Source: a virus. From it: a DNA stretch of 64,000 nt. The position numbers and the translations under genes are program-made. This document shows positions 43,446 to 64,000 of this stretch, in pieces (the first letter of the stretch is position 1; each line of letters begins with the position of its first letter). The DNA lies in IMG/VR virus record IMGVR_UViG_3300017917_003859, positions 91,028 to 155,027 of that record; one strand, 5' to 3'. The notes beneath the pieces are model-generated. The model worked only from the letters and a program-made list of their open reading frames with translations. It was not told where the DNA came from and made no database searches.

Positions 43446-43481
43446 ACAATAGAAAGTTATGAACAACCTAGATAAACAATA
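43428..43481 (+). repeat. 24-bp direct repeat of the thyA start
   Basis: TATGAACAACCTAGATAAACAATA at 43428 and 43458; near-copy around 43133. Confidence 0.85.
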
Positions 43482-44790
43482 CACAGACCTACTCCAAGAC
43501 ATTTTGGATAATGGTTACACTAAAGGTGACCGTACAGGTACAGGAACACTATCAGTATTCGGAAGACAAATACGTCATAAAATGAGTGATGGATTTCCTT
43601 TACTTACAACTAAAAAGATGGCTTGGAAATCAATCGTAACTGAGTTGATTTGGTTTTTAAGAGGTGATACCAATATCAAATACTTAGTTGATAATGACTG
43701 TCATATTTGGGATGGAGATGCGTATAAGAGATATGTAAAATGGGTTGAATCGGCTAAAAACCAGAATAATGAAAATGAGATAGTCAAAATACCTATGTCT
43801 AAAGAAGATTTTATTGAAACCATTAAAGGTAATGATGAGATATTAAAAAAAATGGGTAAAAGATATTGTGATGAGTTTGCTAAGAAGTGGGGTGAGTTAG
43901 GTCCAATTTATGGTAAGCAATGGAGAAGTTGGTACAAAAGAGAGGTAAGACTTAGAAGTGATGTTGTTGGTGAACCACTAACGCTACCTGAAATTTTTGA
44001 AGTTAAAATACCAATAGACCAAATCTCAAACCTAATCAACGACCTCAAAACAAACCCAGACTCAAGACGATTAATGGTTAATGCTTGGAATGCAGGTGAA
44101 TTAGACCAAATGGTACTTCCACCCTGTCATTATGGATTTCAAGTTTATACAAGAGAGTTGAGTTTAAAAGAGAGGTTATCTTTATGGGATAAAAGATTTG
44201 GGTTTGCAAATGAAGAACAACAAAATCAATTCAATCCCGATGTACATTTAGATACACATGGAATACCTAAACCAGCAATCTCTTTAATGTGGAATCAACG
44301 TTCAGTAGATACATTCTTAGGTTTACCATTCAACATTGCTTCTTATGGATTGTTATTAGAAATCATTGCTAAGGCAGTGAATATGGTTCCTGATGAATTG
44401 ATTGGTAACTTAGGTGATGTACATTTGTATTCAAATCATATTGAACAAGCCAAGGAACAGATTGGTAGAGAATTGAGTTTGGAAGAAAGACAAGATTTGT
44501 ATTATAAATTAAATCCAGAGTTCAGATTGTTACATGATGACATGAACGAACATATGAATAAACATAATGTTCCAAAACGAACAAGAGAACCATTTCCACT
44601 ACCAACATTAAACATCAATACAGAGTTTTGGCCTTATGAAGGTGGTGAGTGTGGTGTAGGTCCATTAGATGCTATTAAAGTATTTGAATCATTTAAAGAT
44701 GACAACTTTTGTAAATGTTTATTGGAAGAAGATATACAATTAAGTAATTATCAATCACACCCAACAATTAAAGCACCTTTATCAAATTAA
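43459..44790 (+). CDS. thyA: Thymidylate synthase with insertions
   Basis: DRTGTGT, FPLLTTK, LGPIYG.QWR, LPPCH, QRSVD.FLGLPFN, HLYSNH. Confidence 0.97.
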   Translation: MNNLDKQYTDLLQDILDNGYTKGDRTGTGTLSVFGRQIRHKMSDGFPLLTTKKMAWKSIVTELIWFLRGDTNIKYLVDNDCHIWDGDAYKRYVKWVESAKNQNNENEIVKIPMSKEDFIETIKGNDEILKKMGKRYCDEFAKKWGELGPIYGKQWRSWYKREVRLRSDVVGEPLTLPEIFEVKIPIDQISNLINDLKTNPDSRRLMVNAWNAGELDQMVLPPCHYGFQVYTRELSLKERLSLWDKRFGFANEEQQNQFNPDVHLDTHGIPKPAISLMWNQRSVDTFLGLPFNIASYGLLLEIIAKAVNMVPDELIGNLGDVHLYSNHIEQAKEQIGRELSLEERQDLYYKLNPEFRLLHDDMNEHMNKHNVPKRTREPFPLPTLNINTEFWPYEGGECGVGPLDAIKVFESFKDDNFCKCLLEEDIQLSNYQSHPTIKAPLSN

Positions 44791-49015: not shown

Positions 49016-49716
49016 ATGAAAATATGGCATATCTCGGACACTTAACTCACGGTTTCCACAAACAACTAACAATCCCAGAAGGAATTGATTTAGTTATTCA
49101 CACTGGTGATTGTAGTAATCATATTGACCCATATCTAAATGAATGGGAAGTAAAAGACTTTTTGATGTGGTATGAACAAGTACCTATTCCAAACAAAATC
49201 TATATTCCCGGAAACCACGACACATCAATTGAGAAAAATTTAGTAACTGCAGCAGATTTTACATCAAGAGGGATACACTTACTAGTCCATGATTGGATTA
49301 ATATAGGTGGTGATTACGATGGAATAAGGGTATTTGGTTCACCTTACACCCCAACTTTTGGTAATTGGTCGTTTATGAAATCAAGAGAAACTATAAATAG
49401 AATTTGGGAACAAATCCCTGAAGGGATGGATATTGTTGGTGTGCATGGACCATGTAAAGGAATACTTGATTTATCTTACAACAGACAAAATGAACTGGAG
49501 TTTTGTGGAGATAATGCTTTACGCAAACATATTTTGAATAGAGTAAAACCAAAATATTTCTTATCAGGACACATTCATAATTTTGAAGATATTATTAATA
49601 CTGGATTTAGACATTTACCTGATTATGAAATTACTTTTAGTAATGCAGCAGCAGTAACTGATAGAAAATTTAATTTAGGGATAACTTATAATGGAAATAT
49701 ATTTGAAATAAATTAG
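49016..49716 (+). CDS. Calcineurin-like metallophosphoesterase, interrupted by a 5-nt insertion after codon 9
   Basis: MKIWHISDT in one frame; HGFH, HTGD, GNHD, HGP, GHIH in the track frame. Confidence 0.8.
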
Positions 49717-49836
49717 TCAGGTGGCGGAATTGGTTAGACGCTAACAAAAAGGGTTAAGATAGGAAAAGAAAGATCGTTAAAAAGATACCCACTTTGTCTT
49801 ATGACTATCATACAGGTTCGAATCCTGTCCTGACTA
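49715..49836 (+). ncRNA. tRNA-like RNA 1 (Leu-type body, no canonical anticodon arm)
   Basis: Acceptor AGTCAGG/CCTGACT+A, D arm GCG..GG..CGC, T arm ACAGG-TTCGAAT-CCTGT; 122 nt. Confidence 0.8.
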
Positions 49837-49959
49837 CGCGATCGCAGCTGCAACCTGCTAAACGGTGGGAGAGGGTACCCAGGCCTCTCAAAACAAGTAG
49901 AAACAACATCTCCCCAGTTTCTTGTTCTATGCATGGAAAGGATTTATAAGGAGATATTT

Positions 49960-50091
49960 AGTCAGGTGGCGAAATGGTAGACGCTACATACTCTGAGGTG
50001 CAAAAACAGAGGTAAGATGGAAACGATAACTTAAATGATTATCAGCTACTGCACCGCACCATCCGTACAGGTTCGAATCCTGTCCTGACTA
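49960..50091 (+). ncRNA. tRNA-like RNA 2 (same body, different insert)
   Basis: Acceptor and T arm identical to RNA 1; 132 nt. Confidence 0.8.
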
Positions 50092-50096
50092 TAAGG

Positions 50097-50168
50097 GCTC
50101 CTGTCGTCTAGGGGTTAGGACGCATCCCTTTCACGGATGAAACGGCGGTTCGATTCCGCTCAGGAGTA
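50097..50168 (+). tRNA. tRNA-Glu(TTC), CCA not encoded
   Basis: GCTCCTG/CAGGAGT acceptor, CATCC-CTTTCAC-GGATG anticodon arm, GGCGG-TTCGATT-CCGCT T arm. Confidence 0.93.
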
Positions 50169-50353
50169 CAAAATGAATATTAATAAATAAAAAAATGAAA
50201 ACACTAAACGTAATTTCAGCAACGTTTGCTTTTTTAGCAATACTAGCTTCAATAAGTGAAAAAGATTATTCAGAAATGATGGCCTGGATAGTTGTATTTC
50301 TCTTTAATGTAAAAGATTATATTTATACTGAATCAAAATAAAAAACAAACAAT

Positions 50354-57900: not shown

Positions 57901-60900
57901 AGCCCCCTTCTATTTTACTAGGCATACACTATTAATTAACATATATTCAAACAAATTAAATAATATGATACCTGAAATTCACGGATACTACCAATGTTCA
58001 AACGCTTGTAGTTATGGTGTCCATATCTCAGATGATATGGAACAAGCCAAATTAATTATGAATGATGAAGACTGTACAGTTACAGACTGGCTAGATATAG
58101 AATGGATAGCATCAAATGATGATGATGAAGAATACGAACCGGTCATTGATCCAAATGGATATAACGTGCCATTAAATCTAGTTATCAAAAAGAACTAGGC
58201 TTACAAAATTTACTAACATATATTTATATAAATTAAAAATAAAGGTTATGAGTAAAAAGAAAAAATATTCAGATACAGAATTAATCACAGCAGATTGGAA
58301 AGACATAGGTGGGGCTTTTGACTCAATGGTTAAAGCAGCACAAGCTATGGGTCTATATGTTTATTCTGCTCCATCTTTTGAAGGTGGTGATGATTATGCT
58401 TTAATTATTTCTAAAGTACCTTATAAAAGTAATGAAGAAGCAGAAGCTGCAGCTATGGGGTTTAATAAAAAAGAATATAAAAAATATTTGAATGGAGAAG
58501 AGGTTTAATTAATCCATTAGGCTTACACTACTTTTTAACATATATTTACTTTAAATAATTAAAATATGTCACACACAAATAAATACACATTTCAAGGTAT
58601 TCGATGGATACCTGGGTATAATGATTTTGATCATGATGATTATGAAATTGAAGCTCAAGATGAAAAAGAAGCATGGGATAAATTAAGAAAAACATCCAAA
58701 TATTGGAAAGCAGTAGATATAACTCACATTAATGGGATATCTGTAGATAAAAACAACATTAAATAATTAAAAAACACACATATGGAAAATATCGTTAAAC
58801 AAACACTCGAAAAAACACTAAATGAACTTTACGACCAAATCGAAACCAAACAACAAGGACACGACCAATTACTATCAAATGGTGTTCATGAAATAGTAGA
58901 TTCTATTGATGACTTATTCAAAGAATTCATCATCAAGGTTTCAGAAACAGAAATATCATTTAAGCATAAAGAAAACCATTCATGGTATGACTTCAGAATA
59001 AATCGAACTACCAACTATGGTTCAGAAGAAAAAACATTTAAGGAAGCAAAACTATCCTACAGTTCATATAGTGAACTAGACAAAACAGGTCTTGAAATGA
59101 CTGTTTGTATAGGATCACTAGCACGCCACTGCTTATATAACACAAATGAATGGAGAGATTTAGTTGGTTTAATGAACTACTCATTGGAACTATATAAAAC
59201 TGAAATTAAAGAGCTAAGTAGTCAAACATACAAAATACGTAATGAAATAAAACGTATTGAAGATGAAGAAAAAAACAACCAATTCAATGATATATTCAAC
59301 AAAGGTACATTCAAATTAAAAGAATCAATTCGTTTTGATTATGGACCTAGTAGATATGACTATGTTAAATCAGATGAATTTTTTTGGGAAGAAAATAAAG
59401 GCGGAAAAACATATACATTAAGTTATATGGAACATAGAAGATCAAACCCACACATGAATGAGAATGGAGATATACTAGAACCGGTTTATGAAAGAGTAAA
59501 ACGTATGGTTCATAAACGAATCAAGAAAGCAGATCTAGAGCGATTCATAAAATATAATGTAAATAAAATAGTGTAGGCTGTTAGGCTTACACAATCTACT
59601 AACATATATTTACTTCAAATAAAAATAATGGAAGATAGAGAAGCAGATTTTATTATATATTGTACAATAATAATATTAATTATTGCGCTTTTTTTATAAT
59701 TAAAAAATAAAGGTTATGAAAACAATTACAACTCACACCAACGGTGATTTTCAATTGACTAAACAAGAAAGACATGAAATCTACAAACAAATGGTAGAAC
59801 ATGACTTCTACTTATGTATCAAAGCTAGAGATATACTTACTGAAAAATATATGTATATAGATGATATGTTTCACAAAACAGATATTGATTCTTATGGTTT
59901 AGTTAAAAAATATTTACCTGAATTATATATGTTTGTTGAGAATACATGTGGTGATGCTCTGGAAGTTTTATGTCCTGGGTTTGGTTCGTTTGAAGTTGGA
60001 AAAATTAGAAAAATAATAGTAGATTTTTGTGTGGAGATGACTAAACCTGAAAAAAATAAAAGATAAATTTGAATATATTTTTTATTTTAAAATTTATTAG
60101 GCTTACATAATCTACCAACATATATTTACTTTATTATAAAATTAAATATTAAACATATGAAAATCACACTCACACCTCAAGAATCGGAAAACTATTTCCA
60201 CTCAGCATTATGTAACAGTTTAGATTATATGTCTGGATACGGACTGGAGTTAGACTATGAAGCAACCGCCTATAAAGAAGCCAGAACCAAACTAGACAAT
60301 CCATGTTTTGAAGATGTACTAATACAATTACTCAAAGATGGTGGAACATTAACATTAGTAGATATAGAAAACGAAGGAGACATGACTAGATCTATTAATA
60401 TTCAAGATGTACATGAACGAGTACAACACACTCCATTCAGTCATTTAGTAGATATGGTAAATGAAGAAGACGACGCTACAACAGGTGACGTAATACTACA
60501 AACAGTATTCTTTTCAGAAATAATATTTGGTTAGGCTTACACAATCTACTAACATATATTTACATTAAATAATTAAAACACACAACTATGAATCCATTTG
60601 ATAAACCATTCAACACTTGGACAATCGAAGATTTTCAAGACGCACTAAAAATCACTCAGGCAAATCAAAACAAACCAACAACAATTCAAATTGGACCTAC
60701 ATCACTAAACGTTACAGCTCATTTTTCAAAATCAATAGGTCTACCTATACCACCTACAATTGATATAGTTGAACTAGAACGAGACGAACCAATTGTAGAA
60801 AAACAACCCAAAATAAAAGATACAAAATATACTCGAATGAAAGCATTTCATAAAGAGTTACAAGCATTTATCAGTACATTACAAGGCAAAAATGGTAAAT

Positions 60901-62654: not shown

Positions 62655-62808
62655 TAAAAATAAATAAAACGTTATGTGACAAATTAGGGATGAGTGGTGT
62701 TGGATGGGTGGAAGACTGTTGTGTGTGTGAACAAGGGTGGTGATAGGTGGGGGTGGTGGTGTTGGCGAAAATCCAACCCCCTCATTCACCTCACCACCTC
62801 TTTTCTTA
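62655..62808 (+). ncRNA. Promoter-driven G/T-rich non-coding element ending in a long hairpin
   Basis: Promoter at 62617, ATG-TGA only, G-rich tract, hairpin 62735-62799 followed by a T tract. Confidence 0.55.
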
Positions 62809-62939
62809 TAGACAACAGATATCTGTATATACTGTTAGGCTTACACCGTAAAGTCACATATATTTACATTATAAGTTACGGAAAATCACAAACACAGCCA
62901 ACATCTTTACGGAAAATGGCAAAAACAAAACACACAACT

Positions 62940-63158
62940 ATGGAAACAACAAACTACAAAACAGAATTAAGTTCAAGAATAATAAACTTGATAGCAGAGT
63001 GTTGGGATTACAACCTGAAAGTATTAGTGGAAGTGGAAAAAGACAATTTAGAAAAAGCTGATTTATATAAAATGGTATGTGAGGATATAGAAGAGGAAAT
63101 TGAAGTGTTGATGTTAATAGAGGATGCATTGTACAATAATAGACCTAACATTAAGTAA
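62940..63158 (+). CDS. Acidic hypothetical protein (probable true start of track ORF 62694)
   Basis: ACACACAACT-ATG leader after promoter 62836. Confidence 0.65.
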   Translation: METTNYKTELSSRIINLIAECWDYNLKVLVEVEKDNLEKADLYKMVCEDIEEEIEVLMLIEDALYNNRPNIK

Positions 63159-63219
63159 CGTACAAAACAACTATTTAAAAACTAGGCCTACAAAATTATA
63201 GTACATATATTTATATTAA

Positions 63220-63351
63220 ATGAAAAGTAATTTAAAACAAATAGAAGTAACTATTCAGGATATTTGGAATGCATCACGTCCAACAATCCAACGTAACAAG
63301 AAAAAATATACAAGAAAAGACAAACATAGAAGTAAAATGTTTGGCAATTAA
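63220..63351 (+). CDS. Small basic peptide (43 aa, KKKYTRKDKH)
   Basis: ORF after promoter 63183. Confidence 0.55.
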   Translation: MKSNLKQIEVTIQDIWNASRPTIQRNKKKYTRKDKHRSKMFGN

Positions 63352-63374
63352 AGATATTTTTTGTATATTTATTA

Positions 63375-63668
63375 TGGAACACAAATCCAAACCACTACGG
63401 GCTTCCTACGGGATGTAACTCCAAAAATAGTGTTTTAGGTAATGGTTCAAACAAACGTTCATTATTAGTTTAGGCAAACAAAAGCATTAATGCACCCGGT
63501 CCACATAACCGGATTTTAATTTGACAAGAACACCCGTACCGCTAGCCGACCTAGCTAGATGCGTGAATGGTGTGAGTTGATAGTAGAGCAAGACGATGTG
63601 AGTTAAAATTGATATAAATGCTGGTCAACAATCTCGGGCCGGCTCTCATACTGCTTGTTTAATCAATA
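63375..63668 (+). ncRNA. Unassigned ~290-nt structured RNA
   Basis: No long ORF, raised GC, many nested helices with G-U pairs, upstream TTGG-N19-TATATTTA. Confidence 0.6.
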
Positions 63669-63728
63669 GTTAGGCTTACAGAACAACCTAACATATATTT
63701 ACAACATAATAATAAAATAATAAAGGTT

Positions 63729-63899
63729 ATGGAAGAATTAATTATTAAAAAACTAACAGGTGGTTTATTAGGTATGAAAAATGGTACTAAAAAACCAACC
63801 GATGTTGCTCCTTGGTTAAATAAATTAAAACCTATCAATCCAGGAATGTATGAGGACTATCTAGTTAAGTATAAAGAAACATTAAATTCAATTAAATAA
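63729..63899 (+). CDS. Small hypothetical protein (56 aa)
   Basis: AATAAAGGTT-ATG leader after promoter 63671. Confidence 0.6.
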   Translation: MEELIIKKLTGGLLGMKNGTKKPTDVAPWLNKLKPINPGMYEDYLVKYKETLNSIK

Positions 63900-64000
63900 T
63901 TAGGCTTACATAATATGTTAACGTATATTTAGTTTAAATAAATAAAACCACCACACCCAAACACAACCAACCCAGAACGGGGGGGGGGGGGGGGGGGGGA

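Follow-up and report, generated by a model that had tools for sequence, protein, structure and literature searches.

The final 64 kb of a 155,027-bp IMG/VR virus record, which we refer to as the window and whose numbering is used for all coordinates, contain on the plus strand at 63376–63668 what is very probably a real structured RNA gene. The best explanation of the element as a whole, to which we assign a probability of roughly 0.6, is that it belongs to a new RNA family of ~290 nt lying outside Rfam. The element does not code for protein, and four phage lineages have kept it, whereas the small genes around it are not conserved.

The phage genome has a G+C content of 28.6% and nearly all of its genes lie on the plus strand. 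T4-type replication genes are present (family B DNA polymerase, clamp loader), as are GroEL and ThyX. The DNA polymerase is at most 32% identical to any cultured phage counterpart; a search with it also identified 78 uncultured viral contigs, most of which match it at 76–87% identity. The last 10 kb of the window form an array of small genes, each preceded by a copy of a promoter repeat (TAGGCTTACA, spacer, ATATATTTA), of which the window holds 28 near-copies compared with a chance expectation of 4.75. The RNA element lies inside this early cassette array, 1.3 kb from the contig end. The contig end itself (63961–63999) consists of ~40 G followed by a single A and resembles a sequencing or assembly artefact, so that the right end of the record does not represent a mapped genome terminus; the final promoter cassette (63901) is truncated by it. 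At 62674–62810, a perfect promoter copy is followed by ATG-TGA, ~85 nt of G/T-rich sequence and a hairpin, with the G+C content locally reaching 54%, and the C/A-rich stretch at 63940–63960 is complementary in composition to the G/T-rich part of this segment. Apart from the array, the ThyX-type thymidylate synthase ORF at 43459–44790 (443 aa) matches positions 29–307 of a 335-position profile with its residues 1–442, and thus comprises ~160 additional residues, possibly an insertion.

Upstream of the RNA gene, TTGG at 63341–63344 is followed by a 19-nt spacer and TATATTTA at 63364–63371, exactly as the earlier note had read its promoter. The same site is equally readable as TTGGCA-17-TATATT, which our consensus scan scored at 10 of 12 positions of the sigma-70 consensus. 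Every version of the element that we found (see below) has a promoter-like site of its own, all three homologues exhibiting TTTG and a TATAAT-like box (TATAAT, TATTAT, TATAAC) with unchanged spacing to a conserved GAACA start. These promoters fit the Bacteroidota −33/−7 pattern (TTTG ... TAnnTTTG) and the sigma-70 pattern (TTGGCA-17-TATATT; TATAAT in L082) equally well, and because the two readings tie, we name no host phylum. On the 3′ side, the gene is delimited by the next promoter-repeat copy, within which a 6-bp hairpin (GTTAGG/CCTAAC, 63670–63693) is possible on the plus strand; the scan lists it with 8 pairs on the minus strand, and the repeat might also serve as the RNA's 3′ end signal. 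Both ends of the gene given in Table 1 are predictions from sequence.

Table 1. Predicted features of the RNA gene and its borders (window numbering)
Feature	Position	Strand	Remarks
RNA promoter	63341–63371	+	TTGG-N19-TATATTTA; sequence and consensus scan
Predicted RNA gene, ~290 nt	63376–63668	+	No ORF, G+C, full-length homology to L082, L083 and L148; predicted ends
Variable 5′ domain	63376–63475	+	Conserved GAACA start, duplicated CTACGGG (63395, 63406); poor alignment
5′ hairpin GUAAUG/CAUUAU	63439–63465	+	Kept in 4/4 versions as GUARUG/CWUUAY
Invariant 17-nt block	63477–63493	+	Identical in 4/4 versions
Hairpin P4, CCGG / 9-nt loop / CCGG, then U run	63496–63522	+	Terminator-like by scan
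Central arm P5–P8	63521–63580	+	Long arm; each helix with changes on both sides
P5	63521–63525 with 63576–63580	+	A-U switches to G-C
P6	63530–63534 with 63569–63573	+	Different sequence in each of four versions
P7	63538–63540 with 63561–63564	+	Double change
P8, CUAG/CUAG, 9-nt loop	63542–63545 with 63555–63558	+	Double change
Near-invariant 20-nt block, including second UGUGAG copy	63587–63606	+	Two G-to-A changes only, in L082
3′ hairpin P9, GCUGGUC/GGCCGGC	63620–63643	+	7–9 pairs in 4/4 versions, G-C to A-U swaps
3′ tail, pairs back to 63581–63603	63644–63668	+	Minimum-free-energy fold of window
Next promoter-repeat copy	63670–63702	+	3′ bound of the RNA gene, outside the RNA

On the plus strand of 63376–63668 no frame holds an ORF, the sole short frame being the 14-codon ATG frame at the start that the earlier note had also singled out. 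L083 and L148 have lost the ATG that the window shows at 63374, and the homologues have no ORF frame in common. As each of the three plus frames contains several stops of all kinds (TAA, TAG, TGA), simple recoding opens no frame, and an alternative genetic code was rejected as an explanation. At 41%, the G+C content of the element exceeds the window mean (28.3 ± 3.8%) by over 3 SD, and only the tRNA region is higher. Searching the whole window against Rfam 15 (4227 models) at gathering thresholds yielded tRNA matches only, at 49960–50168, whereas 63150–63800 searched with E values up to 10 gave one 8-bit chance match on the minus strand and no family. The homologues L082, L083 and L148 likewise returned tRNAs and noise only. 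ARAGORN detected one tRNA in the window (50097–50169) and neither a tRNA nor a tmRNA at 63341–63668. Membership of a known family, which the earlier note had named as grounds for giving up its reading, was therefore not found by this Infernal-type search, and its view of an unclassified non-coding RNA that has a promoter to itself is supported by the missing Rfam match, the negative tRNA and tmRNA search, the conserved promoter, the start codon that is not kept and the covarying plus-strand helices described below. The element also differs from a riboswitch or cis-acting leader, which would occupy the 5′ UTR of a conserved gene with no promoter in between: the promoter repeat at 63670 separates it from the downstream unit, and that unit varies by genome, being a small ORF, a small membrane-like ORF or tRNA-Arg.

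Among 30 related records searched with blastn, two further genomes contain the central 150 nt of the element at 75% identity: G005 (locus L082, 104,954 bp) and G010 (locus L083, 174,694 bp with direct terminal repeats). A fourth version came from a two-block pattern scan of JGI metagenomes, where it lies on three short contigs (L145, L146, L148); the scan also identified L149, a copy of the G005 version. The resulting four distinct versions (window, L082, L083, L148) align over their full length of ~290–340 nt (nhmmer E values 1e-73 to 1e-79) at pairwise identities of 59–73%. When 2 kb of sequence surrounding the element was used as the query against 24 related records, the matches comprised the RNA core and short promoter repeats only, and since the flanking small ORFs matched nowhere, the RNA element is the best-conserved feature of a hypervariable region.

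Searches with model R1 and nhmmer --max recovered the RNA in G000, G005 and G010, and found it absent from four complete relatives (G002, G003, G009, G013). No additional member was detected by R1 in 50 related viral records, by R1 in 0.89 Mb around 100 tRNA-like loci, by nhmmer among the 119 tRNA-like loci listed (~1 Mb), or by R1 as a second copy elsewhere in the window. Distant-mode blastn over 50,697 phage records gave no match to cultured phages, and the neighbouring 230-aa protein, used to seek relatives, found none. Its presence in few relatives and absence from the others searched characterize the RNA as a rare, accessory and movable module. A phyletic profile contrasting the three genomes with the RNA and the four complete genomes without it yielded no co-occurring protein gene, the only fits being spurious antisense ORFs. 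Several candidate matches were rejected: a 19-bit R1 match in G006, which lies inside an ORF; the hits of viral-contig pattern scans (n = 4, exact or degenerate) beyond the known copies, which were chance matches in coding DNA (L143, L144, L161–L166); the metagenome matches L147 and L150–L152; and the two matches of a GTDB genome scan, these last two groups also being due to chance.

From the window sequence alone, the helices of the element do not rise above chance: its minimum free energy of −64.6 kcal/mol compares with −65.8 ± 4.8 kcal/mol in dinucleotide shuffles (z +0.25), 113 of the 200 shuffles folded equally well, and the minus strand gave a comparable z of +0.22. Of the many helices that the earlier note had proposed from the one sequence, comparison with the three homologues upheld some and not others. 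For the 135-nt core (window 63472–63610), RNAalifold predicted seven helices in which 97.7% of the cells are standard pairs. Of the 33 core pairs, 10 are changed on both sides, compared with 4.0 ± 1.4 in column shuffles (none of 500 reaching 10) and with 0–2 in slid controls whose partners were moved by 1–3 columns; with only four distinct versions and a consensus derived from the same alignment, these statistics are weak. Missing covariation had been another ground named for abandoning the RNA reading, and the double-changed pairs speak against it.

Among the individual helices suggested earlier, CCGGT/ACCGG (P4), GCTAG/CTAGC (P8), CTGGTC/GGCCGG (P9) and TAATG/CATTA (as GUAAUG/CAUUAU) proved to be conserved with compensatory change. 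The arms of the proposed pairing TACGGG/CCCGTA are located where they had been placed (CTACGGG at 63395 and 63406, CCCGTA at 63533); the pairing itself is not conserved, as CCCGTA occurs only in the window, and it clashes with the covarying P6 and P7. ACCA/TGGT, whose TGGT belongs to the covarying GGTGT strand, is not conserved either and clashes with the same helices. A two-state switch had furthermore been suspected from the duplicated CTACGGG. This duplication recurs only in L148, and with a partner restricted to the window and a pairing that breaks P6/P7, which covary in all four versions, the switch has no comparative support. The rod comprising GAGCAAG/CTTGTTT and TTGAT/ATCAA is found in the window fold and not in the homologues, which use another register: the window pairs GAGCAAG/CUUGUUU, UGUGAG/CUCAUA and GUUGAU/AUCAAU, whereas the homologues have YAG/CUG and AAGA/UCUU, so that the rod is only loosely conserved.

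The extent of conservation varies along the molecule. The 5′ domain is poorly conserved across the versions, and its hairpin shows G·U to G-C and A-U to G·U changes as well as one U·U mismatch in two sequences. Two arrangements compete for the 17-nt block: it can fold locally into a GCA-UUAA-UGC hairpin, or it can supply the 5′ strands of the closing helices P1–P3, whose partner strands at 63588–63604 would link it to the 20-nt block. As the P1–P3 pairs are invariant, the comparison neither supports nor refutes them, and one of the L082 G-to-A changes turns a U·G pair of P2 into U-A. Within the central arm, the strands of P6 read ACACC/GGUGU, ACAUU/AAUGU, AUGUU/AACAU and CAUC/GAUG. In L148 and L083, the 3′ strand of P9 lies beyond a ~65-nt insert that holds a degenerate second copy.

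Covarying stems arranged around long invariant unpaired blocks, together with two similar hairpins with 9-nt loops, point to a function exerted through the fold. Such stems around long invariant junction blocks are the typical pattern of aptamers and ribozymes. We give an even chance to a trans-acting RNA whose folded form binds a partner or catalyses a reaction. A discrete RNA would be made early in infection from its own promoter at 63341–63371, and its working surface would likely consist of the two 9-nt-loop hairpins together with the unpaired junction blocks that never vary, binding a protein or small ligand or possibly forming a catalytic core, as opposed to pairing with mRNA over long stretches. 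The latter would be the mode of action of a base-pairing regulatory small RNA, in which the invariant single-stranded blocks serve as seeds and the helices as scaffold or for stability. The own promoter, the lack of an ORF and the long invariant stretches would suit such an RNA, as would a hairpin followed by a U run, which resembles the 3′ end of many small RNAs. We nevertheless consider this reading improbable, since no complementarity of ≥10 nt recurred at homologous places in a comparison of phage targets across three phage genomes, and most of the conserved blocks are located in or adjoin helices of the multi-branch core.

The hairpin in question, P4, has a stem of 4–5 pairs with one G-C to A-U double change and is followed by 4–6 U in all four versions. 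Together with the U run it may represent a junction strand or a partial internal terminator; if it terminated transcription mid-element, a single 290-nt molecule would be the wrong description. A cis-acting or processing element could be built on this basis, namely an attenuator or leader acting at P4 and the U run, or two RNAs, one of ~145 nt ending at P4 and one downstream. Besides the terminator-like scan result, which applies to all four versions, the tRNA genes downstream of the element in G010 would be compatible with this proposal. Yet no two genomes share the downstream unit, which is preceded by a promoter copy of its own, P4 with its few pairs and 9-nt loop is weak as a terminator, and the 5′ part, which would contain the sensor site, is the least conserved; moreover, the helices 3′ of P4 covary, so that this region must be transcribed. 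Accordingly, we rate a cis-acting element as quite improbable and retain the trans-acting structured RNA as the preferred reading.

The strand on which the structure forms could be deduced from wobble pairs. The core contains 13 G·U cells and P9 up to four G·U pairs, all of which would be A·C mismatches on the opposite strand, indicating that the RNA reads the plus strand, in agreement with the direction of the promoter and as the earlier note had argued from its G-U pairs. The signature generally sought in a structured non-coding RNA, compensatory substitutions combined with strand-specific G·U pairs, is thus present, within a set of only four sequences. The same cells make it very unlikely that the hairpins form in DNA as part of a replication origin, packaging or recombination site. 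Watson–Crick covariation alone would fit either strand or DNA, and the window copy lies close to a contig end; this end, however, is the poly-G artefact and not a mapped terminus, the position varies from mid-contig in G005 to within the tRNA island in G010, and a conserved promoter is situated immediately upstream. A non-functional spacer or decayed small early gene with chance helices, which the z score of +0.25 and the location among small, fast-evolving cassettes would permit, was already disfavoured and is the least credible reading, given that the element is the best-conserved DNA of its 2-kb region across related phages, has raised G+C and no shared frame, and exceeds the controls well in compensatory changes.

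The genomic setting of the structured RNA differs between the versions. In G010 it is located between tRNA-Leu/tRNA-Met and tRNA-Arg/tRNA-Ile, in L082 and L148 it lies downstream of a tRNA-like gene whose acceptor arms read AGTCAGG/CCTGACT, and in the window it is 13 kb away from the tRNA region. The RNA thus constitutes an accessory module that resides in or beside tRNA genes in three relatives and in the early cassette array here, and is missing from four complete relatives. This placement suggests an early accessory function tied to tRNA or host takeover. A specific link to tRNA or defence, in the form of host takeover or tRNA-linked counter-defence, we put forward as a tentative proposal of low probability. 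In view of its aptamer- or ribozyme-like core pattern, the RNA might even represent a new catalytic or ligand-/tRNA-binding class, carried by a mobile phage module that shuttles between tRNA islands and early-gene cassettes; we regard this as unlikely, if conceivable. It is possible that the RNA of such a mobile module counters host defence aimed at tRNA or translation.

Orphan structured RNAs, exemplified by T4 RNA C/D, GOLLD and ROOL, recur in phage tRNA islands, and to our knowledge no function has been assigned to any of them. The present RNA resembles RNA C and RNA D as a small non-coding RNA that a T4-type phage encodes in its tRNA region: on the T4 genome, rnaC and rnaD (the species 1 and 2 RNAs) adjoin tRNA-Arg, and the G010 copy is located between tRNA-Met and tRNA-Arg. 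The roles of T4 RNA C and RNA D are unknown (PMC3014915). They measure 139 and 119 nt, whereas the present RNA is with ~290 nt about twice as long and has its own promoter, and the window copy, in contrast to the T4 RNAs, is 13 kb from the tRNA genes. A further mark of the T4 RNAs is excision from the tRNA precursor transcript; each version of the present RNA has a promoter-like site of its own. Model R1, run with filters off over T4 positions 69000–74000, gave a best score of 11.7 bits elsewhere and no match on the rnaC/rnaD strand, and MAFFT alignment to rnaC and rnaD showed only scattered identities at chance level.

GOLLD (RF01998) and ROOL (RF03087) are highly structured orphan RNAs of phages and prophages, often near tRNA islands, whose function is unknown (PMC12286853). 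The likeness to the present RNA consists in a phage-encoded element beside or between tRNA or tRNA-like genes, which applies to G010, L082 and L148 and not to the window. At ~290–340 nt it is considerably shorter than these RNAs (~580 to >800 nt) and, with four versions in the collections searched, far rarer, and its sequence gives no evidence of pseudoknots or multimeric cages. The GOLLD and ROOL models did not match the window element or its homologues even with E values up to 10. Hence, the setting resembles those of T4 RNA C/D and GOLLD/ROOL, and the present RNA, as judged by these searches, is unrelated to them. Breaker-type orphan motifs, which come from comparative genomics, are defined as it is, by covarying stems and invariant nucleotides at the junctions within an intergenic stretch that is enriched in G+C and free of ORFs. 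It differs from the motifs of this type in Rfam in that none of the 4227 models matched and in that it forms a separate transcription unit and not the leader of a conserved gene.

The element adds a compact orphan RNA of ~290 nt from an uncultured T4-type phage lineage, with a compact core whose size suits structure determination, probing, ligand screening and assays of self-cleavage. Its patchy occurrence among close relatives provides natural plus/minus comparisons. Furthermore, within a hypervariable array of early-gene cassettes, it is an RNA, and no protein gene, that has been retained as the sole common element of the lineages.

Several features of the tRNA regions were observed alongside. 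The G010 segment C1:152090–162961 contains 25 tRNA genes, whereas the six other related genomes in the comparison have 1–4. An exact copy of the 3′ half of the tRNA-like genes (23 nt, comprising the T arm and the CCTGACT strand of the acceptor) is present in at least 119 viral contigs (L226–L344), with up to six copies per 5 kb (L234) among the matches listed; the two tRNA-like copies of the window, at 49716–49838 and 49961–50092, carry inserts of ~50–60 nt. Two of the relatives without the RNA have other ORF-free, G+C-rich sequence after the same tRNA-Leu/tRNA-Met pair: in G013 (C1:60220–60494, minus strand) it is a segment of ~270 nt, and in G003 (C1:134600–134760) a series of GTAGGGGAATC-like repeats. 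At L082:1840–2100 (G005 ~59650–59910), 150 nt downstream of the RNA, lies a second stretch of ~200 nt that is G+C-rich and lacks an ORF. It gave no Rfam match with E values up to 1. With a promoter repeat of its own and a 3′ end formed by a GGAGGTCC...GGGCCTCC hairpin and a T run, this stretch is probably another phage non-coding RNA.
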